From assembly GCF_000512895.1 (NCBI RefSeq), contig NZ_CP007033.1, positions 124,659 to 156,658 of the forward strand: a stretch of DNA of 32,000 nt, written 5' to 3'. The notes under the pieces were generated by a model. It was given only the letters and a program-made list of their open reading frames with translations, had not been told where the DNA came from and made no database searches. Shown here piece after piece: positions 8,368 to 28,612 of the stretch (positions within the stretch are counted from its first letter, which is position 1; every line of letters starts with the position of its first letter). Made by a program: the position numbers and the translations under genes. This stretch comes from Dehalobacter restrictus DSM 9455. Its GTDB lineage: Bacteria > Bacillota > Desulfitobacteriia > Desulfitobacteriales > Syntrophobotulaceae.

Positions 8368-8379
8368 GGTTTTATTCCT

Positions 8380-8571: not shown

Positions 8572-8615
8572 ACTATATCACCTTTCTTAACAGTTATTCT
8601 ATGGTTTTATTTCAT

Positions 8616-10550: not shown

Positions 10551-10601
10551 GTTGCACCACACCCCTTCTGATAGGACAGTCCTATAACAGTACTGCTTAA
10601 A

Positions 10602-12728: not shown

Positions 12729-12783
12729 GTATATTCCCCTTTCCGTAGAATTCCCCCAGGCCGTTGCAAGACAAGACTATCAA

Positions 12784-13569
12784 TCATAGCTCCAGGTAGG
12801 AATCGGCATATAACATATTGCCTTTAATCATGTCACAGGTTTTGATTGTCTCCATAAGCCTGTGGTCGCAAGGGTTTACAATGGCTGCAGTCAGACCGCA
12901 TTGCATGGCCATTGCACAATAGGTGGCGTCAATGATCGGACGGACATGTTTTGGAGCACCATTGGAGACATTGCTTAATCCAGCATTGGTTCTGAGGCCC
13001 ATTTCCGTGATCTGGCGAATGGTCTCAAGGACTTCCGGTGCTTTTTCCTGCATGCCCTTGATGACCAGAAACAGCGGGTCAAATAAGAGATCCATCGGGT
13101 CGATACCGAGCATCATTGCTTTTTCCAGCATTTCGGTGCAGTAGGTGATGCGTTCTTCAACGTCAGAAGGAATGCCGTCTTTAGCACACAGGGCAATAGC
13201 CATGGCATCGTTGGCGGCGGCGACTTCTAAGAGCCCCAGTCTTGGACCGGCATCGGCAGAATTGATAATCGGTTTGCCTTTGGAACGGTTGTAGACTCTG
13301 ATACCGGCTTCAATTGCTTTTTTATTGGCTGTATCCAAACAAATCGGAACATTATCAAATTCATTCTGCAGAAGCTGAACGGCCCAGGCCATGACTTCTT
13401 CGCCGTCTCTTTCGGCAGGTCCAATATTCAGGTCGAGGTAAACAGCACCGGCATCAAGCTGTTCTTTAGCTCTCTGGAGAATCGGGGCAGGATTACGGTC
13501 AGCGATGGCCTGCCGAATGACTGGAGAAATACAGTGGATTCTTTCACCAATTATTAAAAATCTATCCAT
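12784..13569 (-). CDS. acsE: Methyl-H4folate:corrinoid iron-sulfur protein methyltransferase
   Basis: Pterin-binding (DHPS-like) TIM barrel: IIGERIH..., YLDLNIGP, CLDT, GLSNVSNG. Lies between acsB and acsC. Confidence 0.9.
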   Translation of the reverse strand: MDRFLIIGERIHCISPVIRQAIADRNPAPILQRAKEQLDAGAVYLDLNIGPAERDGEEVMAWAVQLLQNEFDNVPICLDTANKKAIEAGIRVYNRSKGKPIINSADAGPRLGLLEVAAANDAMAIALCAKDGIPSDVEERITYCTEMLEKAMMLGIDPMDLLFDPLFLVIKGMQEKAPEVLETIRQITEMGLRTNAGLSNVSNGAPKHVRPIIDATYCAMAMQCGLTAAIVNPCDHRLMETIKTCDMIKGNMLYADSYLEL

Positions 13570-13650
13570 GTTAGGAGCACCTCCGAAATTTTTTATTGAG
13601 AACAGAATACTTCGAGTTAATACTTCAGGTTAATTCGTATCTTTTTCAGT

Positions 13651-15006
13651 TCAGTTAATGCCTTCCATCGTCCTTAAGAATTTAGGAAGATGCATGGCTT
13701 CATCAGGACCAATGATAACTTCCCAGTCAGGAAGACTGTCCTGGATGTCACCTTTCAGAACGGCAACTTTTCCAGGGATAATAAGCTTTCTGCATTTCGT
13801 TTTGCTTTCAATGCCAGACTCTTTAATGAATTTGGCAATGACCGAGCCGCTAAACTTGCCTGCGGCCCATGCTGTCAGTACAGAGTAACCGCCGGCATCA
13901 GGGATTCCCATCCAGGCCGGTACTTTGGATCTTTCCACTTCACCGGAAACAACAAAGTAAGTCAGGGCAAAGTCGACCGTAATCAAAACAGGTGAGTTGT
14001 CGCCAGGGTTATTGATCGGATAGAATTCCGGTTCAACTCTCATCGGTTTCTGCGGGTCAGTATAGATATTCTGTCTTAAACCGAAGAGCGGGAGAGCGCG
14101 GGTGTAATCCATATCGTCCATAACAATAAGGGAACCATATTTCATGGTGAACAGGGAGGCCAGAGCAACTTCCATAAATTTGTCGCCTTTGGCCAGCTCG
14201 TTGACAAAGACTACGGAAGGATAACCAAAGGTTCTGTCTTGTTCTTTTAAAGCTGTTCTGCGGATCTGCACAGCGTTGGTAAAAGCTTCACGTGCGGAAG
14301 CGTTGCTGATATCCAGCAGTAATTCTTTGTAATCAAGTTTCTGGACATTTTCAACCAGATCATACAATTCAGAAAGTGAGGGGGCTTTTAAGCCGAGAGG
14401 CAGTTTGAGCTCCTTGACCAAAGCAACCATTTCCTGATAGTTGTTGCTGTTAGCACCGAATACGATCGGGAGTTCATCTTTGACCAGTTCCAAAGCATCT
14501 TTCAGCACGGAAACATCGGCGCATACCAGCATATAGGCTACTTTTAAACCGGAAGCTTTGACTTTGTTGATTAAAGCCAGATAAGCGTCTTTGTTTCCAA
14601 CATACTGTAGGGCAGCAATTTCAGCTTTCATTTCTTCGCCGATTCGGACATAGTCGACGTTTTTCATATTGGCGATTTTCGCATCAATTTGTTCCTGGGA
14701 CATCGCATCGGAAAGCAGTACAGCAAATCTGTTGCGGTTGACAAAGGTTTTCTCGTGACGGAAAAGAACAGTTTCACCGCCAAGTTTACATTCGGCTTCT
14801 CCTTTGCCGAAAGTCACGATCTTCATCAGGGGAGCCGTGGACTCAGAGAGCTTTGCCATCGCATCATCACTCATGTGCGAACACTTGCTTATTTCTACAC
14901 CGCCGGCTGCTACCTTCATCGCAAAAGCCATACAGGTAGGAAAGCCACATTCTTTACAGTTGGTTTTGGGAGTCAGTTTATAGATATCCAATCCGGACAT
15001 TGCCAT
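13651..15006 (-). CDS. acsC: Corrinoid iron-sulfur protein, large subunit (gamma)
   Basis: N-terminal 4Fe-4S motif TNCKECGFPTCMAF followed by TIM-barrel and B12-binding domains. The ATG at 15006 (MAMSGLDIYKL) is 9 nt from GGAGG. The ORF-track start at 15012 is only 3 nt from it. Confidence 0.9.
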   Translation of the reverse strand: MAMSGLDIYKLTPKTNCKECGFPTCMAFAMKVAAGGVEISKCSHMSDDAMAKLSESTAPLMKIVTFGKGEAECKLGGETVLFRHEKTFVNRNRFAVLLSDAMSQEQIDAKIANMKNVDYVRIGEEMKAEIAALQYVGNKDAYLALINKVKASGLKVAYMLVCADVSVLKDALELVKDELPIVFGANSNNYQEMVALVKELKLPLGLKAPSLSELYDLVENVQKLDYKELLLDISNASAREAFTNAVQIRRTALKEQDRTFGYPSVVFVNELAKGDKFMEVALASLFTMKYGSLIVMDDMDYTRALPLFGLRQNIYTDPQKPMRVEPEFYPINNPGDNSPVLITVDFALTYFVVSGEVERSKVPAWMGIPDAGGYSVLTAWAAGKFSGSVIAKFIKESGIESKTKCRKLIIPGKVAVLKGDIQDSLPDWEVIIGPDEAMHLPKFLRTMEGIN

Positions 15007-15056
15007 TTTCATTTTCCTCCTTGAATCAAATTACTATCAAAGTCTTCAAATATTAA

Positions 15057-16001
15057 TTATTTCAGGTTATTCACCAAAGCACGGATCGTCTCTGCGGAAC
15101 GCGGATGACGCAGAACAACAGCATCGGAACCGACGGCGATAACACTGGCGGCGGTGGAAACCTCCATGGCAATTCCACGCTCTTCCTGGCAGCCCCATTC
15201 CGGAGAATCTTCCTCTGTAGAGGCAGACTCTTTAACGTCCCAGGTATCAAAAGCAACCGGTGTAATAATCGGCATCTGTAAGGTTTTATCATTTTGACCC
15301 AAAGCAGCCAGTCTGATTCTGTCAATGGTTGAAGCGACATACTCAAAACCATAACCGACAGGTGCGGTCCCGACATTCATTACGATATTTTCGTTTTTGA
15401 CTTCCAGTTGGTTGATTAAAATGTTTAATTGCTTAGCCAGGTTGATGTCAACCGAGGACTCAGCCGCTACTTTATGTTTATAAGCTGTTACGCCGGCTGC
15501 GGCAACATTCTTATAGTTATCTTCAACAGCGGATAACAGAAGGACATTTTTACCTTCCAGCTCTTGGGCTACTTTCTCAAATAATTTAAGGTCTTTCTCA
15601 TAATTTTGTGTCCCGGCAATAACAAGAGGCAGTTTAACAGCATTAGCAACTTCCTTAGCCAGAGTGGCACATTCTTCAAAGGATTTATTTAGGCCGTTCG
15701 GATCTGCGCCTTCAAACCGTAAGCAAATGAAATCAGGTGCAAATTTTTCTTCCACATATTTGGCCCATTCTACAGTATTTCCAACAACCGAACCATAAAG
15801 CTCTTTAAGGCCTTTTACCCAATTTTCCGGGTAAACATCAAGAATTTCTAAACCGATCTTTGTACCACTACCGGTATCACCGTCAAAACTGTAAAACGGA
15901 AACACATTCTGTCCACCGAGCGCTAAGGTGTTTTCCCCTGTCCCTAATTCCAAGTTGTAAATGCTTCCACTATACTTTTGGACTGAGGTTTTAAAAGCCA
16001 C
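15057..16001 (-). CDS. acsD: Corrinoid iron-sulfur protein, small subunit (delta)
   Basis: AFKTSVQKYSGSIYNLELG resembles CFeSP small-subunit N-termini. The GTG at 16001 has AAGGAGGAG 6 nt upstream. This removes the apparent 11-nt overlap with cooC given by the ORF track. Confidence 0.88.
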   Translation of the reverse strand: MAFKTSVQKYSGSIYNLELGTGENTLALGGQNVFPFYSFDGDTGSGTKIGLEILDVYPENWVKGLKELYGSVVGNTVEWAKYVEEKFAPDFICLRFEGADPNGLNKSFEECATLAKEVANAVKLPLVIAGTQNYEKDLKLFEKVAQELEGKNVLLLSAVEDNYKNVAAAGVTAYKHKVAAESSVDINLAKQLNILINQLEVKNENIVMNVGTAPVGYGFEYVASTIDRIRLAALGQNDKTLQMPIITPVAFDTWDVKESASTEEDSPEWGCQEERGIAMEVSTAASVIAVGSDAVVLRHPRSAETIRALVNNLK

Positions 16002-16020
16002 TAGAATCTCCTCCTTCTTC

Positions 16021-16788
16021 TTATAAACCAATTATTTGGCAGATATCTTTAATTGCCCGTTTTGATAAACTGTCATCAGGCAAATTAACCAAGGCTTTTC
16101 CCTGAGAATCATACGCATATATCAATGGATCCAGGGCAATGATTCCCAGCAGTCCCAATCCCTGCAAGGAAATTTCTTCAATAATTCCCTCGTTTAATTT
16201 CCCATCCGGGGCTTTATTGATAATTAAATATTGTTGAGCTACTTTTAAACCTAGTTCTTTGACCAGCTTGTTAATACGGCCTACCGCCTGGACACCGCGG
16301 CGCGAACAGTCACTGACGAGAATCAAAATATCAATGTTTCTTGCTGTTCCGCGGCTGAGGTGCTCCATGCCGGCTTCATTGTCAATTATGACATAGTTGT
16401 ACTTATCAGAGACTTTGTCCAGCTGTTCCCGTAAAATCCCGTTGACGAAACAGTAGCAGCCTTTGCCTTCGGATCTTCCCATGACGAGGAGGTCATAACC
16501 ATTTCCTTCAGTAATACCGGTATTCAGTTGGTACTGAAGGTACTGGGCCTTGGTCATTCCTCCAGGAAAGCCGTCACGCATAGTTTCTCTTAAATTGACT
16601 TCTTCTCTGATTTCTCCAAGCGTAACTTCGATTGTTTCTCCCAGCACTTCGTTCAAGTTAGCATTGGCATCTGCATCGACAGCAAGTACAGGTCCTTGCT
16701 TGTTTTTTACAAGGTAATCGATCAGAAGTCCAGTAATGGTTGTTTTTCCGGTTCCGCCTTTACCTGCTACCGCAATCGTTTTTCCCAT
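16021..16788 (-). CDS. acsF: CooC/AcsF-type Ni-insertion ATPase (MinD/ParA fold)
   Basis: Deviant Walker A AGKGGTGKTT and the metal-binding CxC motif (GKGCYCFVNG). Confidence 0.8.
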   Translation of the reverse strand: MGKTIAVAGKGGTGKTTITGLLIDYLVKNKQGPVLAVDADANANLNEVLGETIEVTLGEIREEVNLRETMRDGFPGGMTKAQYLQYQLNTGITEGNGYDLLVMGRSEGKGCYCFVNGILREQLDKVSDKYNYVIIDNEAGMEHLSRGTARNIDILILVSDCSRRGVQAVGRINKLVKELGLKVAQQYLIINKAPDGKLNEGIIEEISLQGLGLLGIIALDPLIYAYDSQGKALVNLPDDSLSKRAIKDICQIIGL

Positions 16789-16793
16789 CGAAA

Positions 16794-17567
16794 CTACCTC
16801 TTTTCTAGATCAAAGCAGAGCTTAATTGCTTTGACTTCCTCAACAATCTTGCTGTTCATGAAGGGAGACTGATCTGGCCGGTCAGAATTGACGACGTCTA
16901 CGTTGTAAGAGATAAAGCCCAGGCAGGCTTCAGGATCGATATTTTCGAGGATATACGCTTTATCCAAATCGTTTTTGATCTTGTTGCCCACAGCATAAAT
17001 TTTCGGTATGCCAATATCGGAAGCTAATTTCTTAATCTTGTGGTACGTTTGGAGACTCCTAGCTCCGGGCTCAACGACCACAATAAAGGTATTCACACCC
17101 TGGGCTGTTCCTCTGCCGAGATGCTCAATCCCGGCTTCCATATCCATAACGACAACATCTTTATTTTGCAGGACTAAATGAGAAGTAAGTCTTTTCAACA
17201 GGACATGTTCCGGGCAAACGCAGCCGCTGCCGCCGCTTTCGACGGTACCCATCGTCAACAGATTTACACCGTTACAGCAGGTACAGTATTTGTCCGGGAT
17301 ATCATCTACCTGAGGATTTAATTTGAATATTTTACTAAAGGAATCGGTCGGGGTACTTGTTCTTTCTGCAATCAGTTCTTTCATTTCGGCAATCGGCACG
17401 ATCTTGGAAATAATCTCGTCAGGAAAACCAAGGGCTAAAGCCAGATTGGCATCAGGATCGGCATCAACTGCCAGGACCCGGTAGCCTTCCGCTGCATACA
17501 ACCTGCTTAGAATTGCTGCAAAAGTTGTTTTTCCGACGCCACCTTTACCTGTAATTGCTATCTTCAT
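16794..17567 (-). CDS. cooC: CooC-type CODH nickel-insertion ATPase
   Basis: Walker A TGKGGVGKTT and the CxC motif (GSGCVCPEH). Lies directly downstream of cooS. Confidence 0.85.
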   Translation of the reverse strand: MKIAITGKGGVGKTTFAAILSRLYAAEGYRVLAVDADPDANLALALGFPDEIISKIVPIAEMKELIAERTSTPTDSFSKIFKLNPQVDDIPDKYCTCCNGVNLLTMGTVESGGSGCVCPEHVLLKRLTSHLVLQNKDVVVMDMEAGIEHLGRGTAQGVNTFIVVVEPGARSLQTYHKIKKLASDIGIPKIYAVGNKIKNDLDKAYILENIDPEACLGFISYNVDVVNSDRPDQSPFMNSKIVEEVKAIKLCFDLEKR

Positions 17568-17654
17568 TTAAATCACCCCGACGCATCATTTATCTTTTGT
17601 TATCTGTTGCCTGAAGAAATTCTTCTGGCAAAAAAACGACCATGGCCGCGTTTT

Positions 17655-19619
17655 TTAAAAGCCGGCAGGAGCTAAGTCGTCATAGTCGGTAACATTCATT
17701 CTCTGAACGTTAAGCGCTTCGATTTTGGCTCTCTTTTCTTCAATTCTGGCCAGCATTTTTTCTGCGGCTACAGCCGGATCTGTTTCAAAGTAGAATTTTG
17801 CCCCTACCCAGTCTTCCAGTCTGTTTGTCAGGATATCCGTAACTTCCGGGCTTCCAGTTACCGGAGGAACAACGCCTAGAAAGGTATCGATTCCGGAGCT
17901 TACCACGTAGGTACCGATTGCGACAGCTTTTTCGGACATCCATTCCGGAGCTGCACCGACAACCGGCAGTTCGCTCATATCGAGTCCCAGAATCTTGGCT
18001 ACTTCACCAACCAGCTCAAGGATACGGCTGTTGTCAACACAGGAACCCATATGCAGAACAGGAGGAATATCGGCCAGTTCGCATACTTTTTGTAATCCTA
18101 CTCCGCAATACTTGACGGCATCTTTGCTTAAGAGACCAGCTTTGGCAGCAGCCTGAGCCGCACAGCCGGTAACAACAACAATTACGTCATTGGCGAGCAT
18201 CTTTTTAATAATTTCGATATGGCTGTGGTCACCTTTCACCTTCGGGTTGTTGCAGCCGACGACACCGGCTGCGCCTCTTAATACACCAGAGACCAAGCAT
18301 TGCGCCAATGGTTCAAACGTGCCTGGCTTATGCGTATAAGAATTGACAACGCGGTCCAACTGGCCAATAATAGCCTGGTTGCTGTAACCGATCATGCCGG
18401 TTGATTTATGTGTTGGGATGGAAACTTTTTCGTGCTTTCTGTTTGTATAGTTCTCTACTGCTTTCCGAATTATTCCCTTTGCGCATTCATAGGCGTTGTT
18501 CTCATCAAATTCAATATGAACGGCGTCTTTAATTTTGGCAAGTTTTGAGGTGGTGATAAATTTGGTATGGTAACATTGAGCCAGGTTGGCCAGGGAAGGG
18601 AAGATACATTGAACGTCCACAATCATGGCTTCAACGGCACCGGTAACAATCGCGAGCTCCTGCTGATTAAAATTCCCGGCAATTTTAATGCCGTGACGCA
18701 TCGCGACTTCATTGCCGGTACAGCAAATGCCGACCAGGTTGATTCCCTCTGCACCGACACCCCTGGCAAGAGCTTTTAGCTCAGGGTCATCAGCGGCAAC
18801 AACGATCATTTCCGATAAACTGGGTTCATGACCATGCAAGACAATGTTCACCATGTTTTTCTCAATAACACCCATGTTGGCTTCAATTTCTCTCGGCATC
18901 GGGGTTCCAAAGATAATATCGCTGAATTCGGTACCGATATAGGAACCGCCCCAACCGTCGGTCAAAGATGTCCGCATGGAAAGATTGATCATGCTTTCAG
19001 CATCAGCGGTACAGCCCATATGTGTAGCATGCATAATCGATACAACTTCTTTGTCAATAGCATCGGGGAGGATATCATTATCTTCCCAGACTTTTAATCT
19101 TTGTTTAGTAATACTTGGCGGAATAACCATCGAACCAAAAGGCTTGCCAAAGTCATTCAGAGCTGCTTCAGCAACGTCATGGGCAACCTGGTAGATATCT
19201 TTGCCTTCTGTAGCCACACCCCATCTGGCTGCAACATTCAGCAGTTTTTTCTCGTCACGGATTTGATAATCTCCGTCCCGACTTGCCATATGAAGTACAT
19301 GGGCAATATGTCTGCCGTGATCGGAGTGTGCAGATGAACCGCCTGCTACCATTCGGGCATAATGCCTGGAAGCAATAACATCCGCAGTGGCGCCGCAAAT
19401 ACCTTTTTGAACGCCTTTTCCTGGAATCGGGCTGACGCGGCAAGGACCCATGGTACAAATCCGGCAGCATACACCTTGCTCACCAAAACCACATTGGTTT
19501 TTGAGAGCGGCTTTTCTGTCCCAGAGTGTTTCAGAACCGTCATTTCGGGCCTTGACGTAAAGTTCTTGAGTAGCTAAATCTACTGACAGTGTTGTTTCGT
19601 CCAGTAATTTTTCGTCCAT
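17655..19619 (-). CDS. cooS: Anaerobic Ni-Fe carbon monoxide dehydrogenase catalytic subunit
   Basis: N-terminal D/B-cluster cysteines CGFGEQGVCCRICTMGPCRV and C-cluster region motifs (HGHEP, CCTGNE, GSCVDNSR). The ATG at 19619 has GGAGG 7 nt upstream. Confidence 0.95.
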   Translation of the reverse strand: MDEKLLDETTLSVDLATQELYVKARNDGSETLWDRKAALKNQCGFGEQGVCCRICTMGPCRVSPIPGKGVQKGICGATADVIASRHYARMVAGGSSAHSDHGRHIAHVLHMASRDGDYQIRDEKKLLNVAARWGVATEGKDIYQVAHDVAEAALNDFGKPFGSMVIPPSITKQRLKVWEDNDILPDAIDKEVVSIMHATHMGCTADAESMINLSMRTSLTDGWGGSYIGTEFSDIIFGTPMPREIEANMGVIEKNMVNIVLHGHEPSLSEMIVVAADDPELKALARGVGAEGINLVGICCTGNEVAMRHGIKIAGNFNQQELAIVTGAVEAMIVDVQCIFPSLANLAQCYHTKFITTSKLAKIKDAVHIEFDENNAYECAKGIIRKAVENYTNRKHEKVSIPTHKSTGMIGYSNQAIIGQLDRVVNSYTHKPGTFEPLAQCLVSGVLRGAAGVVGCNNPKVKGDHSHIEIIKKMLANDVIVVVTGCAAQAAAKAGLLSKDAVKYCGVGLQKVCELADIPPVLHMGSCVDNSRILELVGEVAKILGLDMSELPVVGAAPEWMSEKAVAIGTYVVSSGIDTFLGVVPPVTGSPEVTDILTNRLEDWVGAKFYFETDPAVAAEKMLARIEEKRAKIEALNVQRMNVTDYDDLAPAGF

Positions 19620-19931
19620 TGCGTTTCCTCCTTCAATAACCATACGTTGTCTTTAAATCGTTTAGCTGCTACAGATGGCTAATACTTAAAGTAAAAAGTG
19701 TCGTGTACTGAGGTTTTAACTCAAATCGGGCCATTTATGAGTAAATTCACAAACTTTTTTAAAGGATCAAAGCTTTATCTCTGGCAGTAAAAATGGTATA
19801 AAAATGACATTATATATTTAAGATTATTATAGTACGAAATTTTTTGGGAATATATTGATCCGTTGTTAATGAACGAAATGGGGGGCTGAATAGCAATAAT
19901 TCAATTCTTAACAGCATAATTTATATATACT

Positions 19932-19941
19932 TGTATATAAA
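19932..19941. promoter_or_regulatory. Near-copy (9/10) of the TGTATATACA palindrome
   Basis: TGTATATAAA within CTTGTATATAAAT. Its centre lies 50 bp from the centre of the perfect copy at 19982..19991. Confidence 0.4.
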
Positions 19942-19961
19942 TAAAAATTAAAAAAGTTATC

Positions 19962-19993
19962 TGTATAGGCCTGTATATTTTTGTATATACAAG
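19962..19993. promoter_or_regulatory. Candidate operator array: TGTATA half-sites at 19962 and 19972, plus the perfect palindrome TTGTATATACAA (19981..19992)
   Basis: The sequence cTGTATAggccTGTATAttttTGTATATACAAGg was read directly. The hexamers repeat at exactly 10 bp. The same 13-mer TTGTATATACARG recurs at 22050 and 28365. Confidence 0.6.
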
Positions 19994-19994
19994 G

Positions 19995-20023
19995 ATAATT
20001 GCACTAAAAGAATTTTTTCACAA
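19995..20023 (-). promoter_or_regulatory. Possible sigma-A promoter of the cooS-acs operon
   Basis: The minus strand reads TTGTGA (20023..20018), a 17-nt spacer, then TGc-AATTAT (extended -10; hexamer 20000..19995). The palindrome starts 2 nt downstream of the -10 hexamer and so would cover the TSS. The hexamers are weak. Confidence 0.3.
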
Positions 20024-20164: not shown

Positions 20165-21130
20165 TTACAGCAAATCACTACTGTCTTCATCATAATTCCT
20201 CAACTCAATCGATTTTTTTGCTTGGAATATATAATCTAATTCTTTATTGTTGAGATTTAAAGCGCCGATTCCGTTTGCAGTGGCCAGCTCCAAAACGGCG
20301 TGTTTACTTATTCCTGTCATAACCATGTGATCGACTTCATCATAAAAACCTTTTCCATGGGATACCCCGTATGAACCCGCATCGCTGCCAACGGCGATTT
20401 TTACGCCCAATTCAAAGGCTTTTTTGACTTGAGCTTTCTGAGCATCATAAATCCGGGCAATATTCGGCAATTGGTCTGTAAAGCGGCTGTCTTTTGAAGT
20501 AATCAGGTTTCCCAAAGGTGCTAACGTAGGAATCCAGATGGTATCGTGTTCCAGCATCAGCTGCAATTCATTTTCTGTCAGAAAATAACCATGCTCAACT
20601 GTATTTGCACCGGCTTTCACAGCGATACCAACTGCTTCTGCCGAATTAGTGTGGACCATTACGGGAAGGTCTTGATCCTTTGCCGTCTGTATCATGTAGT
20701 ACATTTCATCATAACTGAAATGTGAGCCGTCAACTTTCCCGAATTGATTAAAATCTACAAGTCCGGTCAGTAGTATCTTAAGATGATCAGGATTTGACGC
20801 AAGCAGCTTTTTAAAAACATTTTTGAAATCAGCCATATCGGCGACCGGCTTGCCTAAGAAACTGCCGTAGCATCCTTGTTTGTAGATCGCAAAACCAGGG
20901 GTCCGGAGAATCATTCCTTCTTCAAGGGCCAGTTCTCTGGCCAGAAGAGATACATTTAAGTTATCTCCTCCGTCGCGCAGTGCACAAATCCCCATTTTTT
21001 TATATTTTCTAAGGAAATTGGTAATTATAGTTGGATTGGGGTTATCTTTGTGCTGCAGACGTGCCTCTTGAAAAGCTATTCCATCTAAAGCCAAATGAAC
21101 ATGGGCGTCAACCAATATGTTTTTAATCAT
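20165..21130 (-). CDS. Amidohydrolase-superfamily metal-dependent hydrolase (short, about 321 aa); substrate unknown
   Basis: HxH motif (VDAHVHL), later His residues (VMVHTNS, TVEHGY) and the Asp motif (AVGSDAG) match the amidohydrolase TIM-barrel metal-ligand pattern. The ATG at 21130 has AGGTG 5 nt upstream. Confidence 0.7.
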   Translation of the reverse strand: MIKNILVDAHVHLALDGIAFQEARLQHKDNPNPTIITNFLRKYKKMGICALRDGGDNLNVSLLARELALEEGMILRTPGFAIYKQGCYGSFLGKPVADMADFKNVFKKLLASNPDHLKILLTGLVDFNQFGKVDGSHFSYDEMYYMIQTAKDQDLPVMVHTNSAEAVGIAVKAGANTVEHGYFLTENELQLMLEHDTIWIPTLAPLGNLITSKDSRFTDQLPNIARIYDAQKAQVKKAFELGVKIAVGSDAGSYGVSHGKGFYDEVDHMVMTGISKHAVLELATANGIGALNLNNKELDYIFQAKKSIELRNYDEDSSDLL

Positions 21131-21160
21131 TTTATTCACCTGGCTTTAAAAGGTTTTGCA

Positions 21161-21193
21161 GACCACCAGAAGGGGACCGCCTTTCTAGTGGTC
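21161..21193 (-). other. Stable intercistronic hairpin between the methyltransferase and amidohydrolase genes
   Basis: GACCACCAGAAGG / CCTTTCTAGTGGTC forms about 12 bp with one mismatch and a 6-nt loop. There is no U-tract on the transcribed (minus) strand. Confidence 0.4.
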
Positions 21194-21220
21194 ACAACAT
21201 TTCATTTTTCTCGTCGATCT

Positions 21221-22024
21221 TTATTTCACAGGACCAATTTTACCTTGTCTGAAAGCGGTGCTGAACTTTCTGCAGTTCTTGTCTTTACCCATTAATGCTT
21301 CAGTTGCAAGCAGGGTTGCAATCATATCTCTGCTGCAGGGATCCATAATCGCGGAATCCATACCAAAGAAAGTAGCCAGGGCCAGGAAGTTCTGGTTGAC
21401 AACTTTTCTTAAAGGCATTCCAAAAGAGATGTTGCTCAAACCGGAAGTGATTTTGATTGTCGGGTACATTTCTTTGATTCTTGTCATGCTTTCATTAAAG
21501 GAGTACATAGAATTGTTATCAGTAGACAAAGCAATGACCAAGGGGTCGACATGCATCCTGTCAGGAGTAATATCATATTTAGCAGCTTCCTCAACCATTT
21601 GCTTAGCAATTCTGACTCTGGTGTCAACGTCTTTGGGAATTCCGTCATTGTCGCAAGTCAGCGCAATGACTTCCCAGGTCGTTCCCTTGATAAGCGGGAA
21701 AATGACATCGCATTTGTCGCCTTCCATGGAAACGGAATTGATAAGCCCCGGTCTCTTGGCATATTTAAAAACAGCTTCAATTGCACGCGGATTCGGGCTG
21801 TCAATACAGAGCGGAGTGTCAACGGCATCCTGAACAATATCCATTAACCATTTCAGTGTTTCCACTTCAACATCAGGTGATGTACTGGCACTGACATCTA
21901 GGTAGTGGGCGCCGTCATTGGTCTGGTCAATCGCACGCTGGCGGATAAAGTTAGCATCTCTCTCTTCAATCGCTTTTTTCACGATAGGGATTGTACCATT
22001 GATTTTTTCACCAATAATAATCAT
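21221..22024 (-). CDS. Second pterin-binding methyl-H4folate:corrinoid methyltransferase (MtrH/MtgA/AcsE-like, MT2-type)
   Basis: MIIIGEKINGT..., HYLDVSA, CIDSP and GLSNISFG match the DHPS-like pterin-binding barrel. It is a paralogue of the acsE at 12784..13569. Confidence 0.85.
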   Translation of the reverse strand: MIIIGEKINGTIPIVKKAIEERDANFIRQRAIDQTNDGAHYLDVSASTSPDVEVETLKWLMDIVQDAVDTPLCIDSPNPRAIEAVFKYAKRPGLINSVSMEGDKCDVIFPLIKGTTWEVIALTCDNDGIPKDVDTRVRIAKQMVEEAAKYDITPDRMHVDPLVIALSTDNNSMYSFNESMTRIKEMYPTIKITSGLSNISFGMPLRKVVNQNFLALATFFGMDSAIMDPCSRDMIATLLATEALMGKDKNCRKFSTAFRQGKIGPVK

Positions 22025-22049: not shown

Positions 22050-22062
22050 TTTGTATATACAG
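22050..22062. promoter_or_regulatory. Candidate operator TTGTATATACAGG (perfect core palindrome TGTATATACA 22051..22060)
   Basis: Read directly. It lies between the predicted promoter (22074..22102) and the RBS (AGGAGTG, 22034..22040) of the methyltransferase gene. Confidence 0.6.
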
Positions 22063-22073
22063 GTATGCGCTTA

Positions 22074-22102
22074 GAGTTTAACATTGTTTCTACATACGGT
22101 CA
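22074..22102 (-). promoter_or_regulatory. Putative sigma-A promoter of the methyltransferase-amidohydrolase unit
   Basis: The minus strand reads TTGACC (22102..22097), a 17-nt spacer ending in TGt (extended -10), then TAAACT (22079..22074). Confidence 0.4.
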
Positions 22103-22216
22103 ATATCTTTTTCGACAAAGTATACCTATATTCTAAAAAGATTTAGATTTAAAAAATAAAAGTATCCTACATATTCTATCTTTCATAGACTATTTAAATT
22201 GCTGGGTCAACAAGGT

Positions 22217-23068
22217 TTACCAGTGTTTTTTTCTGGCTGCCCGCAGACAGTTTTTCATCAAAATCGCGGTGGTAATCGAACCTACGCCGCCCGGTACAGG
22301 GGTGATCGCACTGACTTTGTTCACGACTGCATCATAATCGACATCCCCGCACATCTTGCCGTCACCGGCATCGTTGATGCCAACGTCGATGACGACAGTG
22401 TTTTCGGATACGTATTTGTCATCGATCATTTTGGCTCTGCCCATTGCAGCAATGATGATGTCCGCTTTCTTCGCAATTCCAGCCATGTCTTTGGTCTTGG
22501 AATGGCACATCGTTACGGTCGCATTCTCTTTTAAGAGCATCATGGCCAGTGGTTTTCCTACAACGAGGCTTCTTCCCATGACCACTACATTCGCGCCGCT
22601 AAGATTGTAGCCGTAATGGCTCAAGGTTTCCATACATGCTGCGGGCGTGCAGGGCAGGAGTCCGCTCATATCGCCTTCAAATACCTTGGCCAGGTTCAGT
22701 GGATTCATGCAGTCAATGTCTTTATCTGCCGAGATCAGGTGCTTGATGACTTCTTCGTCCAGCTGTTTCGGTAGTGGACGGAACAGCATGATGCCATGAA
22801 CGGTACTGTCATTGTTGACCCCCGTCATGACTTTTGTGAATTCTTCCATGCTGATATTTAAGTCCAAAGGATAGGTCTTGGTTGCAATGCCAAGATTATC
22901 GCAGTTTTTAATAATACTGTTTTCATAGTAAACGTCGTCCGGACGGCTGCCGACGCGAATGATGCCTAAGGTCGGGTTGATGCCTTCAGCTTTTAAAGCC
23001 GCAACTTCCTGCTGGAGGTTTTCTTTCATGGCCTGGACAACGGGTTTAGCGTTAAGAATCTGAGTCAT
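22217..23068 (-). CDS. folD: Bifunctional methylene-H4folate dehydrogenase / methenyl-H4folate cyclohydrolase
   Basis: 283 aa. Contains PTLGIIRVGSRPDDVYY, LLPCTPAAC, VVVMGRSLVVGKPLAMML and ITPVPGGVGSITTA, which are canonical FolD motifs. Confidence 0.95.
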   Translation of the reverse strand: MTQILNAKPVVQAMKENLQQEVAALKAEGINPTLGIIRVGSRPDDVYYENSIIKNCDNLGIATKTYPLDLNISMEEFTKVMTGVNNDSTVHGIMLFRPLPKQLDEEVIKHLISADKDIDCMNPLNLAKVFEGDMSGLLPCTPAACMETLSHYGYNLSGANVVVMGRSLVVGKPLAMMLLKENATVTMCHSKTKDMAGIAKKADIIIAAMGRAKMIDDKYVSENTVVIDVGINDAGDGKMCGDVDYDAVVNKVSAITPVPGGVGSITTAILMKNCLRAARKKHW

Positions 23069-23073
23069 GCTGC

Positions 23074-23706
23074 TTATTTACCTCCCGTAATTGCATTCTG
23101 AACTTCCGCAAAGATGCGGTCGGCTTTGGCGGTATATGTGGTGACAAGTTCGCTCAGTTCGGTCTCGATTTTTTGTTTTAGAACCTGATCTTTCATGATT
23201 TGGGTGTTGATTAAGACATTCAGCTTGGCGCCTTCGAGCGCAGCTTTCAGGAAGGTTACGCCGACACCAACGTCGCTGATCGCAATACGGGTGCCTTTCT
23301 GAGCAAATTCTTCCTGAAGATTGATGCCGTCAGTGCAGCATCTAACAATATCAAGCGGTACAAGTGTTGCTTTAACCAAAGCAGCCTGCAGGGTTTCTTC
23401 TTTGATCCGGATTTCTTCTTCAGTATTTTTGGGCAGTCCGTAAGCCTGGGAAAGCGGATAGAAAGCATCAGCATCTTCCTTGACCAGAACCTGCAGTTTT
23501 TCAATGATCTTCTGGCCTTTTTCCATCAGGACGAGTACATCGGCTTCAACATCAGCATATTTCTTCTTGCCGACAGTTAAACTTCCTACCATGACACCCA
23601 GCGCCATGCCGATGGAGCCAACATATGCAGAAGCACCGCCGCCGCCAGGAACCGGCTCTTTGGAAGACAGAGCATCTACAAATTCGATACAGCTCTTTTT
23701 CAACAT
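23074..23706 (-). CDS. fchA: Cyclodeaminase/cyclohydrolase family protein (FchA-type methenyl-H4folate cyclohydrolase / formimino-H4folate cyclodeaminase)
   Basis: The PVPGGGGASAYVGSIGMALGVMV motif and all-helical composition fit the family. The ATG at 23706 is 9 nt from AGGAG. Lies between fhs and folD, as in acetogen clusters. Confidence 0.85.
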   Translation of the reverse strand: MLKKSCIEFVDALSSKEPVPGGGGASAYVGSIGMALGVMVGSLTVGKKKYADVEADVLVLMEKGQKIIEKLQVLVKEDADAFYPLSQAYGLPKNTEEEIRIKEETLQAALVKATLVPLDIVRCCTDGINLQEEFAQKGTRIAISDVGVGVTFLKAALEGAKLNVLINTQIMKDQVLKQKIETELSELVTTYTAKADRIFAEVQNAITGGK

Positions 23707-23914
23707 AATATCCATCTCCTGTTCTTCATTTTTTTCTAAATTTTTAGCTACTGATTATTGCATGAGCAACCAATATATAGCGATCCCATAGTTATGTTAT
23801 CTTAAGACAAGTATTCTACAAAATACTCAAAGCTTAAATTCTGGCATCTTGCTCTAGAAACTAGTCTGTGTAATACATAGACAACGTCAGTGAATAAAGA
23901 TTAAGAGCATTTAT

Positions 23915-23951
23915 AGAATGAGATGGTAGTACAAAGCTGCCATCTCATTCT
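23915..23951 (-). terminator. Perfect 12-bp hairpin downstream of fhs (probable terminator or RNA-stabilising stem)
   Basis: AGAATGAGATGG-13 nt-CCATCTCATTCT, 27 nt after the fhs stop. No clear U-tract follows it on the minus strand. Confidence 0.45.
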
Positions 23952-23977
23952 TATTGGAAACAATATCAAACTTTATC

Positions 23978-25654
23978 TTAGAATAAGCCGGAAATCTTAC
24001 CGGTGCTGTCTACGTCAATGTTTTCAGCGGACGGTACTTTCGGCAGGCCGGGCATGGTCATGATGTCCCCGGTAAGTGCAACGGCAAAGCCCGCACCAGC
24101 AGAAATCTTCACGCCACGGATCGAGATTCTGAAGCCTGATGGACGTCCCAGTTTCTTCTGGTCATCAGACAAGGAATACTGGGTCTTCGCCATACAGACC
24201 GGAACATCACGATAGCCGATCTTTTCGATGTTCTCGATATCTGCGGAGCTGCTGCCAATGAAGTCAACACCGTCTGCACCATAGATCTTGGTGGCAATTG
24301 CGGTAATCTTGTCTTTGAGGCCCATGTTGATGTCATAAGCAAAGTTAAAGCTTTTCGGGCTGTCAATGATGCGAAGGACTTCTTCAGCCAGTTTCGCGCC
24401 GCCAGGGCCGCCTTTTTCCCAAACTTCGGAAAGGGCTACATTAACGCCCAGTTTCTTGCACTCGTCTTCAATCATTGCCAGTTCAGCTTCGCTGTCGGTC
24501 GGGAATTTATTGATCGCAACAACGGCAGGCAGACCAAAGTTGACGGTGACGTTTTCAACGTGTTTTAAGAGGTTCGGCAAGCCTTTTTTGAGGGCCTCCA
24601 GGTTTTCTTTGTTGAGATCAGCTTTAGCTACGCCGCCATGGGATTTGAGCGCACGAACGGTTGCAACGATAACAACGGCTTCCGGACGCAGGCCACTTAA
24701 ACGACATTTGATATCAATAAATTTCTCAGCGCCGAGGTCAGCACCGAATCCAGCTTCAGTTACAACATAGTCGCCAAGTTTTAAAGCCATCTTGGTCGCC
24801 ATAACACTATTGCAGCCGTGAGCAATGTTCGCGAACGGTCCGCCGTGGATGAAAGCTGGTGTATGTTCAAGAGTTTGTACAAGGTTCGGTTTTAAAGCAT
24901 CTTTCATCAGGGCACCAACAGCACCTTGACATTTCAGTTGACCGGCAGTTATGGGTTCACCGCTTCTGTTGTAGGCGACAATGATTCTCTCAACTCTCGC
25001 TTTGAAGTCGTCAATATCGCTGGACAGGCACATGATCGCCATGATTTCAGAAGCAACCGTGATGTCAAAGCCGTCTTCTCTCGGAGTACCATTGGCTTTG
25101 CCACCAAGTCCGTTGACAATGGAGCGGAGCTGACGGTCATTCATGTCCATGCATCTTTTCCAAGTAATTCTGCGAACATCGATATCCAGCGCGTTGCCTT
25201 GTTGGATATGGTTGTCGAGCATCGCTGCAATCAGGTTGTTAGCAGCACCAATGGCATGAAAATCACCTGTGAAGTGAAGGTTGATATCTTCCATTGGTAC
25301 GACCTGAGCATAACCGCCGCCAGCGGCGCCACCTTTGACACCAAATACAGGGCCTAAGGATGGTTCGCGTAGTGCAATAACAGTTTTTTTGCCGAGATAA
25401 TGGAGAGCATCTCCTAACCCGACAGATGTCGTAGTTTTACCTTCTCCGGCAGGAGTCGGGTTGATGGCAGTAACCAGAATCAGTTTGCCATTCGGTGTGT
25501 CCGCTTTTTGATTCAATAAGTTGTAGTCGACTTTGGCTTTGTATTTGCCATAGGATTCCAGATAATCCTCGGGGATTCCGAGTTCTTTTGCTACATCTAA
25601 TACAGGCAGCATGGTTGATTCCTGGGCAATTTCAATATCACTTTTGAAAGCCAT
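23978..25654 (-). CDS. fhs: Formate--tetrahydrofolate ligase (formyl-H4folate synthetase)
   Basis: 558 aa. Contains [24 protein letters not shown] and the [23 protein letters not shown] signature. Confidence 0.97.
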
Positions 25655-25750
25655 TAATTGTTTTCCCCCTTTTTTTAATTATGGACATCTTTGCTTAACT
25701 TTATTTAGATTTTACGTAAGCACTATCAAATTTTTTCTGGACAAGATGGT

Positions 25751-26605
25751 CTATATCCATAACAGCAGTAGGTTTTTTTTGTACATGAAACTCATCCAGT
25801 AAATAATCCCGACAAACAGGCTGCCGCCGACAATATTTCCGAGCGTAACAGGAATAAGGTTATTCACAACAAACGTTCCCCAGTTAAGGTGAGCAAGTTT
25901 TTCAGGTGTTACACCGAGCGTTGCAGCCTGGGCCACCCAGGTTGGGTTGGCTTTGGCGAGAATGCCGGCAGGAATGTAATACATATTGGCTACACAGTGT
26001 TCAAAACCGGAAGTAATAAACAGCCAGATCGGGAAAAAGATAGCGAGGAGTTTACCGGTAATATCCTTGGCTGCATTCGCCATCCAAACGGCCATACAAA
26101 CCAGCCAGTTGCACAAGATCCCCATGAAGAAAGCTTTCGGGAAAGTCAGGCCCGTCTTGTATGCGGCGACTTTGATTGTAAACCCTCCGAGCAAACCTGC
26201 GGAAAAGTCAAACTGGCCGGAGTAAAGGATAAACAGGACGATAAGCATGGAACCAATAAAGTTCCCGACATAGACAATCGTCCAATTCCGCAGCATCTTT
26301 AGCCATCTTGATTCTTTTTCCATACAAGATACCACAATCAGGGTGTTTCCGGTGAATAATTCAGCTCCGGTGATAACCACCATCATCAGTCCTGTGGCAA
26401 ATAAAGCACCAGCGAGTGCTTTGCCTAAGCCAACAGAAGTGATGGTGTGAATGGCAGTATTAGAGCCTTCCGCCGCGAAGGCAATAAAGGCTCCTGCTAG
26501 GATTGCCAACAGCAGCAATTTCAATATAGAAGAATTCGTTTTATTCTTTCCATATTCTACAAATCCCTCAGTAATCTCTGAAGGAGTCTTAAACATTTTT
26601 TCCAT
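25751..26605 (-). CDS. focA: Formate/nitrite transporter (FNT) family channel, FocA-like
   Basis: A membrane protein with six or more hydrophobic segments and the FNT signatures GAELFTGN and SGFEHCVANMYYIP. The start could instead be the ATG at 26596. Confidence 0.88.
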   Translation of the reverse strand: MEKMFKTPSEITEGFVEYGKNKTNSSILKLLLLAILAGAFIAFAAEGSNTAIHTITSVGLGKALAGALFATGLMMVVITGAELFTGNTLIVVSCMEKESRWLKMLRNWTIVYVGNFIGSMLIVLFILYSGQFDFSAGLLGGFTIKVAAYKTGLTFPKAFFMGILCNWLVCMAVWMANAAKDITGKLLAIFFPIWLFITSGFEHCVANMYYIPAGILAKANPTWVAQAATLGVTPEKLAHLNWGTFVVNNLIPVTLGNIVGGSLFVGIIYWMSFMYKKNLLLLWI

Positions 26606-26645
26606 TTCTCCTACCCCTATTATAAGTGTATTTAGGCTGATTTAA

Positions 26646-26706
26646 AAGGTCATAAAGTTTAAAGGACGGTTACAAAGACTGAATGGCCTTTAAACCTTAT
26701 GACCTT
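26646..26706 (-). terminator. Long hairpin immediately after the metF stop (probable terminator)
   Basis: AAGGTCATAAAGTTTAAAGG / CCTTTAAACCTTATGACCTT pairs at 19 of 20 positions with a 21-nt loop. On the minus strand it is followed by TTTTAAAT. Confidence 0.5.
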
Positions 26707-28268
26707 TATTCTTTTTCTTCGAAATTTGTTCTAGGTTTAATGCCAAGTCTTTCCGCAGAGTGGTCCTGGCCTTCAAAAAAGTTTATCCAGCCTGAAGTAT
26801 GCTGTTTTTCCCAATTGTAAGGGCTCACATGATAGGAATTCAGCTTTTCTTCCTCAGAATAGCCTTTTAAGCGGTAATAGGCTTTGACCCAGATGCACTT
26901 CTGCTTGTCCGGATACACTTCACACCAGCCGTTGTAGCTTCCTTCACATGGGCCGTTCCGTTGGTTCTTGGGACAGTTGCCCATTGGACAGACGTAGGCT
27001 ACATCAATCAGCGCACAGTCACCACAGTCCTGGCAATTGTACATGCAGGATTTGGCAAAGTGCTCAATGCCGTGAAAAGGTTTTTCCAACGCAGAATCTT
27101 TTATGGCATGACAAAATCCACGCATAAAGCCGAACATTCCTTTGTTGGGTTCAAACATCATTTTGTGAACAACTCTGGACATCTTATAATTTAAATCAAA
27201 GCTCTTCTCATAATTGTTGTAGTCATTGGATTTTTGAGCAGTATTCAGGCCGGTCTTTTCATCTTTGGCGTAAACATAGAAACCGTTTTTCTGAGGATAG
27301 TCAAACTCCCGGACATAATCCTGCCAGTTGGCGGCCAGTTCGTTTCCGCGGTCAATAATATATTCAACTTGTTCGTACGTCGTATTATGCCCGCCGAGAT
27401 GAACGCCTTTGTATCCCATACCTTTCAAGATAGCAAAGAGTTTCGCTGCCCTATCGAGCATGGCGGCGGCACCCTTGTCACTGCTTTGTTTTTCCTGTTC
27501 CAGTTCAGCAACGAGCTTGTCCGTAATAACACATCCGGGGACTTTATTCATACTCATCGCTTTGGCAGCACCATAAGTCAGCAGGTAAATATTTCCCATT
27601 AAGCATCCGCGCAGGTTATTGTGCTTCACAAATTGATAGAGTTCGTGGTACTTCCTGACATCGTAGCCAACTTGGGGTATAATGAATTGAGCACCGTTCT
27701 CGATCTTCTTTCTGAGCTTGGTGTACTGGAGCATCTGTTCGGCTTCGGTGGCTTTAAAAGGTGAAACAGCAGCACCCGCAAAAAGATGGGTTGGCTGAAG
27801 TTTATTGACACCTTTAGCTGTGGGGAGTTCCAATCCGTCATTCATCTTGGCGATAAAGGCCAAGAGCTGAGTGGAATCAAGGTCAAAAACCGGTTTGGGC
27901 CGTCCGAAAAAATTACCCGGATCATGGTCGCCGGTCAGTACCAACAAGTTATGGAGCCCCGAACGTTCCAGGGAAAAAAGCTGGCTTTCCAGTTGCGTGC
28001 GGTTTTTGTCCTTGCAGGCAACGTGAATAATTGCATCGATGCCTAAACTTTTGATTTCCCTGCCAATGCCCTCAGGATTAATGCCGACACTTCCACCCGG
28101 GTTGTCAGTCAGACTAACAGCATGGATCTTTTTCCCTTTAGCAGCTTGTTCCGCCAATTGAAGCGCTTTTTCCTGAGAAACTTCTTTAGAGCCGCGGCCG
28201 GGTACGAGTTCCCATGTTACAATAAACTCATTGTTGTCCTGTATTGCTTTACGAAAAGTGTTCTCCAT
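26706..28268 (-). CDS. metF: Methylene-H4folate reductase fused to a C-terminal MetV-type Cys-rich domain (MetF-MetV fusion)
   Basis: The N-terminal ~300 aa form a MetF TIM barrel (VTWELVPGRG, SLTDNPGG, LVLTGD). The C-terminus CMYNCQDCGDCALIDVAYVCPMGNCPKNQRNGPCEGSYNGWCEV matches the MTHFR_C/MetV domain. The ATG at 28268 has AAGGGGGA 5 nt upstream. Confidence 0.85.
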   Translation of the reverse strand: MENTFRKAIQDNNEFIVTWELVPGRGSKEVSQEKALQLAEQAAKGKKIHAVSLTDNPGGSVGINPEGIGREIKSLGIDAIIHVACKDKNRTQLESQLFSLERSGLHNLLVLTGDHDPGNFFGRPKPVFDLDSTQLLAFIAKMNDGLELPTAKGVNKLQPTHLFAGAAVSPFKATEAEQMLQYTKLRKKIENGAQFIIPQVGYDVRKYHELYQFVKHNNLRGCLMGNIYLLTYGAAKAMSMNKVPGCVITDKLVAELEQEKQSSDKGAAAMLDRAAKLFAILKGMGYKGVHLGGHNTTYEQVEYIIDRGNELAANWQDYVREFDYPQKNGFYVYAKDEKTGLNTAQKSNDYNNYEKSFDLNYKMSRVVHKMMFEPNKGMFGFMRGFCHAIKDSALEKPFHGIEHFAKSCMYNCQDCGDCALIDVAYVCPMGNCPKNQRNGPCEGSYNGWCEVYPDKQKCIWVKAYYRLKGYSEEEKLNSYHVSPYNWEKQHTSGWINFFEGQDHSAERLGIKPRTNFEEKE

Positions 28269-28355
28269 AAGTATCCCCCTTTCCAATTATTCTCGAAAAT
28301 CTAACATGAAAATAAAAAATAAAGAAAATAAAAAGAGATAATTGCGTCCAAACAA

Positions 28356-28377
28356 TGTATACTATTGTATATACAGG
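28356..28377. promoter_or_regulatory. Candidate operator: TGTATA half-site (28356) plus TTGTATATACAGG (28365..28377)
   Basis: aTGTATActatTGTATATACAGGgg was read directly. The half-site and the palindrome are 10 bp apart. The operator lies 17 nt downstream of the predicted metF -10 hexamer. Confidence 0.6.
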
Positions 28378-28392
28378 GGTTTTGCTTACTTT

Positions 28393-28421
28393 AATATATC
28401 ATCCGAATTTTCAATAGTCAA
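28393..28421 (-). promoter_or_regulatory. Putative sigma-A promoter of metF
   Basis: The minus strand reads TTGACT (28421..28416), a 17-nt spacer, then TATATT (28398..28393). Confidence 0.45.
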
Positions 28422-28526: not shown

Positions 28527-28612
28527 ATGATATGTTAGAATGATTTTTTGGAAAAAGACGGTTGTCCTTCGCTGAAAATGGCAGGTTTCATTATAACAGA
28601 AAGGAAAACAAT

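Follow-up and report, generated by a model that had tools for sequence, protein, structure and literature searches.

Little is understood of how the Wood-Ljungdahl pathway is controlled at the level of transcription. In the literature searched, the sole pair of a factor and a motif examined experimentally for the genes of this pathway is the TetR-family activator CAETHG_0459 of Clostridium autoethanogenum with the promoter motif Pcauto (PMC6873888). We analysed a 32-kb stretch of Dehalobacter restrictus-type DNA (the window, to the whole of which all window counts apply) where the palindromic 10-mer TGTATATACA stands ahead of three gene units of carbon fixation and one-carbon (C1) metabolism. 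These palindromes are very probably, as judged by sequence comparison, the binding sites of a GntR-superfamily regulator encoded 10 kb away, at 30508..31221. More precisely, we give a probability of about three in four to the reading that the array at 19922..19993, ahead of cooS, is one of three operators of this regulator, which would act as an effector-released repressor coordinating the three C1 units. The regulator belongs to another protein family than CAETHG_0459, which is an activator, and the two motifs are different; the new regulator-operator pair is a testable candidate for the control of the pathway.

Among described systems, HutC, the repressor of histidine utilisation in Pseudomonas, recognises TGTA-N2-TACA, assembles up to a tetramer with a 51-bp footprint and uses sites made of three half-sites; at Phut it represses by promoter overlap and regulates its own synthesis (PMC12977541). 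The regulator studied here has the same architecture, a GntR winged helix-turn-helix (wHTH) joined to a UTRA domain, and its operator has the same TGTA-N2-TACA core, with a phasing of half-sites which fits the higher-order binding of HutC. It differs from HutC in that it is not an orthologue by score, in that its predicted targets are C1, corrinoid and Wood-Ljungdahl genes, and in that its operator is extended to 16 bp by AC...GT flanks; urocanate is an unlikely effector, and hut genes were found neither in the window nor in the related loci. NagR (YvoA) of Bacillus subtilis and DasR of Streptomyces, with their dre operators, share with it the operator register GT-n-TA-n-AC and the DNA-contacting residues Arg48 and Gly69. 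However, Arg38 is replaced here by Asn, position -5 of the operator is T and not G, and the predicted regulon is unrelated to N-acetylglucosamine. In NagR, the effector acts through a "jumping-jack" movement that frees the DNA-binding domains (PMC4333415). Repressors of the HutC subfamily that act on TGTA-N2-TACA operators are of a classical kind; the apparent novelty lies in this one regulator, in the 16 bp of its operator and in a regulon that brings together corrinoid methyltransferase and Wood-Ljungdahl genes.

GntR genes lying near genes for MttB, a cobalamin-binding protein, a methyltransferase and a transporter have been noted in Eubacterium limosum and E. maltosivorans (PMC4791908, PMC9303578). 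Orthologues of the regulator likewise adjoin corrinoid protein genes in E. limosum and E. callanderi (loci L076-L078), whereas in those papers adjacency alone was noted. In the literature searched we found no operator, regulon or Wood-Ljungdahl link for such a GntR/UTRA regulator, although curated regulon databases or subscription journals may describe one, and a search for the 10-mer brought up only unrelated papers. Two candidates from the literature were set aside. In C. autoethanogenum, the GntR protein CAETHG_3915 was recovered in a pull-down with a Wood-Ljungdahl promoter; it is not the orthologue, as its cloning primer ATGTCATCGCAAAATGTTAC mismatches the sequence ATGAAAAACTCTATATATTG with which the C. 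ljungdahlii orthologue begins. The other candidate, the mlp gene cluster (PMC10418091), is not the same system.

Three copies of one palindrome in the window

By Pfam assignments, the Wood-Ljungdahl cluster of the window lies on the minus strand. The target units, with those of their genes that are discussed below and the regulator, are:

7762..19619, minus strand: target unit A, cooS, two cooC genes, acsD, acsC, acsE, acsB, acsV (RACo) and a DUF3786 gene (Pfam)
20165..22024, minus strand: target unit B, methyl-tetrahydrofolate (methyl-THF):corrinoid methyltransferase and amidohydrolase genes (Pfam)
21221..22024, minus strand: pterin-binding methyl-THF:corrinoid methyltransferase of unit B (NCBIfam PRK07535 passed, 370 bits for a cut-off of 259)
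20165..21139, minus strand: amidohydrolase of unit B (Pfam)
22217..28286, minus strand: target unit C (methyl branch), fused metF-metV, fdhC, fhs, fchA and folD (Pfam)
26706..28286, minus strand: fused metF-metV (metFV) of unit C, a single 526-residue protein with a methylenetetrahydrofolate reductase (MTHFR) domain and DUF5981
22217..23068, minus strand: folD of unit C (Pfam)
30508..31221, plus strand: GntR/UTRA regulator (Pfam)

The 10-mer TGTATATACA occurs exactly three times in the window, at 19982, 22052 and 28366, and the three palindromes are the heads of the three units: metFV-fdhC-fhs-fchA-folD, the methyltransferase with the amidohydrolase, and cooS-acs. The original prediction, made from the letters of the window, had this count right and had rightly placed all the copies in intergenic DNA; the position which it gave for the second copy, 22051, is the start of a 13-mer, the 10-mer itself starting at 22052. 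It had also presented the array as the head of the cooS-acs operon. A site does stand there, but it is nothing special to cooS, being one of three probable operators in the window. The operators and their parts are:

19981..19993: core of operator A, palindrome TTGTATATACAA with the 10-mer core at 19982..19991, about 360 nt 5' of the cooS ATG
19962..19977: two TGTATA half-sites, 10 and 20 bp from core A and in phase with it
19922..19941: two adjoining degenerate units in the same 10-bp phase, TATATATACT (2 mismatches, matrix score 6.5) and TGTATATAAA (1 mismatch, matrix score 12.7)
22051..22063: operator B, TTGTATATACAGG, 27 nt 5' of the methyltransferase gene start, with the top matrix score of the window (23.5)
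28356..28377: operator C, TGTATA half-site at 28356, in phase with the core TGTATATACA at 28366, lying where metFV and the gene of a second RACo-type activator (RACo2) diverge

All three copies share TTGTATATACARG, and GTATATAC is found in the window at the three operator sites only; the pattern GT.TA.AC occurs nowhere else in the 32 kb. The register GT-n-TA-n-AC, that of HutC being TGTA-N2-TACA, is matched by the window sites, as a match of sequence alone. The recurrence had been said to go beyond what AT-richness would explain, and it does: against the three observed copies, dinucleotide shuffles of the whole window gave a mean of 0.01, with none of 100 shuffles reaching three, and a first-order Markov model trained only on the AT-rich intergenic DNA of the window (3.3 kb, 33% GC) gave a mean of 0.004 and never three in 3000 simulations. 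Similarly, TGTATA-N4-TGTATA was counted three times (19962, 19972 and 28356) and in none of 100 shuffles, and there are 9 intergenic TGTATA hexamers for 1.4 expected.

The array ahead of cooS reads as had been described: cTGTATAggccTGTATAttttTGTATATACAAGg occupies 19961..19994, the TGTATA hexamers start at 19962, 19972 and 19982, thus 10 bp apart, the perfect 12-nt palindrome TTGTATATACAA lies at 19981..19992, and the copy matching at nine positions of ten, TGTATATAAA, at 19932..19941. The array extends further than this description, with in-phase units starting at 19922, 19932, 19962, 19972 and 19982. Read in the direction of transcription of the minus-strand genes, its main part is TTGTATATACAA-aaa-TATACA-ggcc-TATACA. 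Palindrome A and the nearer half-site are kept in two close relatives (L081 and L082, with CooS 98% and 93% identical), as are the degenerate units at 19922..19941, while the farther half-site has gone from L082 through a 31-bp deletion.

The palindrome at regulator loci of other genomes

We retrieved 80 loci, from contigs representing one genome per species, with an alignment of 35 regulator orthologues. They come from Dehalobacter, other Peptococcaceae, Tepidanaerobacter, Thermosediminibacter, Thermincola, Desulfosporosinus, Desulfotruncus, Ca. Formimonas, Geosporobacter, Clostridium ljungdahlii, C. ragsdalei, Eubacterium limosum, E. callanderi and Alkalibaculum. A site with at most one mismatch is present in 64 of the 80. 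The most frequent palindromic 10-mer of their intergenic DNA is TGTATATACA itself, with 58 copies compared to 10 for the best unrelated one. Their intergenic DNA (178 kb) contains 59 exact copies and their coding DNA (1.1 Mb) contains 9, of which at least two inflate the coding count by a coding coincidence: at L024 10015 and L030 7751, they are the N-terminal P-V-Y codons of the regulator's own gene (CCT GTA TAT ACA).

The consensus of 58 sites is ACnTGTATATACAnGT, a palindrome of 16 bp in which flanks extend the core. Repeats of this kind might instead belong to the architecture of promoters or to the structure of DNA, as -10-like, TATA-rich elements or as bendable AT-rich DNA, or they might be an RNA element of the 5' leader. 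The motif is indeed AT-rich and TATA-like, it has predicted -10 elements nearby, the transcripts of sites B and C would include it, and together with an adjacent half-site it can fold into a hairpin of low stability (-4.8 kcal/mol at site C, z = -2.2). However, its conservation is strictly palindromic over the 16 bp, with G/C at fixed symmetric positions; the site stands ahead of about 3% of the other genes of the same loci, so that it is no general promoter feature; and the -10 of metFV is a separate conserved element 5' of the operator. A structured RNA element was rejected: half-site flanks do give weak hairpins, but the core alone stays unfolded (-0.4 and 0 kcal/mol) and the window has no Rfam match at gathering thresholds, which makes a role as RNA unlikely. 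We regard this whole family of explanations as highly improbable, and we return to a protein operator.

The density of sites is maximal less than 1 kb from the start of the regulator gene, in both directions, and is near zero past +4 kb. Taking as targets the genes with a site (at most one mismatch) within 250 bp upstream, we found one ahead of 61% of the methyltransferase orthologues, usually 23-48 bp before the ATG, of 56% of the metFV genes, of 34% of the corrinoid protein genes and of 26% of the genes heading the regulator operon, for 3% of all other genes. In the most distant taxa, the regulators of which are 48-54% identical (Clostridium ljungdahlii L074, C. ragsdalei L072, Eubacterium L076-78, Alkalibaculum L070 and L080), the sole site of the locus lies directly 5' of the regulator's operon. 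Such a lone site at a regulator's own operon is a classic signature for assigning a motif to a regulator, and it points to the GntR/UTRA protein as the predicted binder. In this sense the palindrome travels with the regulator orthologues, 5' of the same gene families, which argues for the array being a protein operator, as had been proposed, and for the 30508..31221 protein, singled out at the same time, being the right candidate to bind it.

The motif could also be the operator of some other transcription factor encoded elsewhere, the neighbouring GntR gene being a bystander; the link between protein and site rests on sequence comparison, and 16 of the 80 regulator loci have no clear site. 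We judge this very unlikely. Besides the density of sites at the regulator gene itself and the lone sites of the distant taxa, the motif fits the operator register of the regulator's own subfamily, and it is unlike the boxes of Rex, CodY, CcpA and Fur.

The 10-bp phasing of the window is found again in these loci. Among 116 oriented contexts (58 non-redundant site contexts, each in both orientations), an additional GTATA is present at exactly +10 bp in 13 and at -10 bp in 7, when about 0.2 is expected for each offset, and there is a secondary peak at +21 to +23. Hence, we concluded that the phasing is a trait of the family and not an accident of one locus. It had been taken as a sign of oligomeric binding, with which it is consistent, HutC tetramers using extra half-sites.

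The regulator itself has an N-terminal GntR wHTH (PF00392, E = 9e-21, residues 12-74) and a C-terminal UTRA effector-binding domain (PF07702, E = 1.6e-19, residues 98-230), an architecture which places it in the HutC subfamily of the GntR superfamily; it is 100% identical to one D. restrictus protein. By score it stays below the cut-off of every named NCBIfam equivalog, those of HutC (TIGR02018, 109.4 bits for a cut-off of 220), TreR (96/212), PhnR (92/297) and PhnF (83/157), and on this classification it is an unnamed member of the subfamily. One database labels an orthologue as a regulator of "N-acetylglucosamine utilization", for which the gene neighbourhood gives no support. The closest solved structures over its full length are those of NagR/YvoA (2wv0, 4wwc) and DasR. 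In the complex of NagR with DNA, Arg48 reads G-4, Arg38 reads G-5 and Gly69 of the wing contacts the minor groove at -7 (PMC4333415). The alignment keeps Arg48 and Gly69 as Arg42 and Gly63 and puts Asn at the place of Arg38, and the operator half-site is T-5 G-4 T-3 A-2 T-1. The residues would thus fit the site, G-4 being kept together with the conserved arginine, and -5 being T, not G, where Arg38 has become Asn. The recognition helix SRMTVRKGL is nearly invariant among orthologues. Three homologues (L029, L069 and L079) have SRATVR instead of SRMTVR, and their loci lack any site resembling TGTATATACA; a sub-branch of another specificity may be represented here.

The conserved neighbours of the regulator gene belong mainly to a corrinoid methyltransferase system, and not primarily to the Wood-Ljungdahl genes: a methyltransferase 63-79% identical to that of 21221..22024, a corrinoid protein 65-81% identical to that of 6935..7573, a URO-D-family methyltransferase, a transporter of the major facilitator superfamily (MFS) and a DUF1638 protein. 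A RACo homologue adjoins the regulator gene in most related loci. Outside the window, this comparison makes the corrinoid methyltransferase system the conserved core of the predicted regulon. In Tepidanaerobacter (L009, L011 and L014), the site heads a methyltransferase-fhs-fchA-folD-metF operon, and in Desulfosporosinus L036 it is 5' of fhs. The pair of regulator and site adjoins corrinoid methyltransferase genes in syntrophic acetate oxidisers, in sulfate reducers and in the model acetogens C. ljungdahlii and Eubacterium limosum. These two acetogens are genetically tractable, so that the prediction can be tested there. If it is confirmed, the operator could find use, as a regulated promoter part, in the engineering of gas fermenters.

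Promoters and mode of action

The positions of the operators relative to predicted promoters bear on how the regulator might act. These promoters are:

22075..22103, minus strand: predicted promoter of the methyltransferase-amidohydrolase unit, TTGACC-17-(TG)TAAACT; operator B starts 13 nt past the -10
28393..28421, minus strand: predicted promoter of the metFV operon, TTGACT-17-(TG)TATATT, 10 of 12 positions plus the TG; operator C starts 17 nt past the -10
19995..20023, minus strand: weak candidate promoter of cooS, TTGTGA (20023..20018), 17 nt, TGcAATTAT (20003..19995), ending 3 nt before core A

Upstream of metFV, an alignment of Dehalobacter with metagenome-assembled genomes (MAGs) whose MetFV is 59-65% identical shows a footprint: the -35 TTGAC, the -10 TGnTATATT and the operator CCTGTATATACAAyAGTATAC are conserved in diverged surroundings (the -35 and -10 in L003, L004, L006 and L008). 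The methyltransferase genes of Desulfosporosinus have the same arrangement of promoter and operator, TGaTAATAT and then the core. The regulator operon of C. ljungdahlii has a strong promoter pair TTGACA / TATAAT followed by GTATAC and TGTATATACA; the supplement of PMC6873888 gives no experimental transcription start for the Clostridium orthologue. In strain ERI-2 (L074 9571..10001), about 370 nt between this operator and the regulator gene are free of open reading frames (ORFs), with a second promoter-like site near 9911.

The mechanism that we infer, as regards binding, oligomerisation, sign of regulation and effector, would be the following. A dimer of the regulator would bind the palindrome (core TGTATATACA, family consensus ACnTGTATATACAnGT) through its wHTH domains, the counterpart of NagR Arg48 reading the G at position -4 from the centre. 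Additional subunits would be recruited by the TGTATA half-sites, which at a spacing of 10 bp face the same side of the helix, and a tetramer or a larger complex would cover about 50-70 bp. The predicted extended -10 of the metFV and methyltransferase promoters is followed by the core after 13-17 bp, i.e. at about +5 to +20, from which we infer repression: the bound regulator would block initiation or early elongation. At cooS, about 360 nt separate the array from the ATG, and a weak element resembling a -10 adjoins the array. Binding of a small-molecule effector to the UTRA domain would release the DNA and thereby switch on together the methyl branch, the methyl-THF:corrinoid methyltransferase and carbon monoxide dehydrogenase/acetyl-CoA synthase (CODH/ACS).

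The distance of 360 nt follows from the start codon of cooS. The start at 19643 of the mechanical ORF list is replaced by the probable one, the in-frame ATG at 19619, which is preceded by GGAGG and from which the relatives align; GAAGGAGG stands at the proper distance 5' of it (window 19617..19643). The promoter proposed for this operon, TTGTGA-17-TGcAATTAT, is present in the sequence as announced, but with 8 matches to the 12 consensus positions it lies under the threshold of the promoter scan, and neither its -35 nor its TG is conserved in L082. It is a weak candidate. The leader between the array and cooS (19620..19981, minus strand) is 85% identical between the window and L082, compared to 75% at the third codon positions of cooS, which suggests that it is under mild constraint. 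It has no Rfam match and no terminator. It holds a perfect TATAAT at 19832..19827, about 150 nt 3' of the array, with no good -35; a promoter-like site of the plus strand is also seen in this region, at 19804..19833.

It could be argued from these facts that the same HutC-type regulator has an activating or dual role at cooS-acs, the array standing 5' of the real promoter, which would lie in the 360-nt leader, and working through recruitment of RNA polymerase or through DNA looping. The distance of the array from the ATG, the weak candidate promoter with its unconserved -35, and the TATAAT in a conserved leader all speak in this sense. On the other side, this TATAAT lacks an acceptable -35, cores B and C sit just 3' of good extended -10 promoters (as predicted), the cooS site of L005, L085 and L086 is just 35-103 bp from the ATG, and the characterised members of the HutC subfamily are mostly repressors. 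We consider activation unlikely and keep to repression as the preferred reading.

The site is also found ahead of cooS in other genomes. The scan of metagenomes for CooS gave two loci only, both from close relatives of Dehalobacter, and the distant orthologues were reached by protein search and contig look-ups. Four of the five cooS orthologues of about 80% identity have a site upstream: the exact palindrome 103 bp (L085) and 75 bp (L086) before the ATG, a site with one mismatch 35 bp before it (L005), and a cluster of degenerate sites (L084). In L085, the regulator gene is 3.3 kb 5' of cooS and divergent from a methyltransferase-corrinoid-amidohydrolase-cooS-acs unit. Among the orthologues of about 67% identity, only Geosporobacter has a related sequence, TATATATACAtgt; no site was found at cooS of Anaerovirgula, nor at a Clostridium monofunctional cooS. 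The presence of the motif 5' of orthologous acs operons, which had been set beforehand as a check, thus holds within the Dehalobacter-related Peptococcaceae, and CODH/ACS seems to have joined the predicted regulon in this lineage specifically.

Several points weigh against our reading. All 80 loci were picked through the regulator, which means that the survey covers regulator-bearing genomes only. The 16 loci without a site of at most one mismatch include a clade of MAGs which keeps the standard recognition helix. In Ca. Dichloromethanomonas elyunquensis (L083), whose CooS is 80% identical, there is no operator-like site anywhere in 22 kb. At cooS itself, the array is far from the start codon and the neighbouring candidate promoter is weak and unconserved in L082, so that the mode of action of the regulator at cooS-acs is uncertain. 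Finally, as the regulator is under every named equivalog cut-off, its effector is not inferable by homology.

If the reading is right, the three predicted target promoters jointly cover, in Dehalobacter, the methyl branch, the methyl-THF:corrinoid methyltransferase and CODH/ACS. The role of the pathway in this genus is unclear, its isolates failing to grow on H2 plus CO2 (PMC4751268). It is possible, if on balance rather doubtful, that we are dealing with a so far undescribed and widely conserved master regulator of methyl-group metabolism (C1-tetrahydrofolate and corrinoid) in anaerobic Firmicutes, extended in the Dehalobacter lineage to the whole Wood-Ljungdahl pathway including CODH/ACS. 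Such a regulator would respond to a signal at the level of the pathway, for instance a folate-bound C1 species, or to the corrinoid status sensed via the small B12-binding protein which most genomes encode beside it, and not to one growth substrate.

Corrinoid protein gene and other features

Further features of the window touch the regulator gene or a possible additional site:

6729..6746: possible weak fourth operator, near-palindrome TGTAGATACA and TATACA, 206 bp 5' of the corrinoid protein gene (matrix score 12.5)
6935..7573: corrinoid protein gene
28562..30406, plus strand: RACo2, a second RACo-type corrinoid activator, directly 5' of the regulator gene (Pfam)
plus strand, with RACo2 and the regulator: Vut_1 transporter gene (Pfam)

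The region upstream of the corrinoid protein gene (6614..6934) contains a promoter-like TTGTGA-18-TGgTAAAAT, akin to the candidate promoter of cooS, with a TGTATA half-site at 6650, 6 nt past its -10. A terminator-like hairpin with a T-run lies in the leader of the gene, at 6824..6850. A fourth, weaker operator may be combined here with an attenuator.

RACo2 and the regulator are probably co-transcribed, and we found no site directly at their promoter in the window. In most of the other genomes, a protein of about 230 residues with B12-binding and B12-binding_2 domains is encoded directly 5' of the regulator gene, often overlapping its start (for example L022 9316..10011, L011 8674..9375 and L078 9356..9997); in Dehalobacter, the RACo-type activator occupies its place. 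Judging by this gene order, the regulator might have in the B12-binding protein a partner that senses corrinoid.

In L083, the cooS-acs operon is divergent from a separate MTHFR gene and an rnf cluster. A small DNA-binding protein of the AbrB/MazE type (SpoVT/AbrB-like) is encoded on the minus strand of the window at 3173..3463, between housekeeping genes and metG, and is unconnected with the operators. In a published proteome of D. restrictus, the MetF-MetV reductase was undetected when other proteins of the pathway were found (PMC4751268). The metF and metV genes, fused in the window, are separate in Tepidanaerobacter, Geosporobacter and Anaerovirgula.

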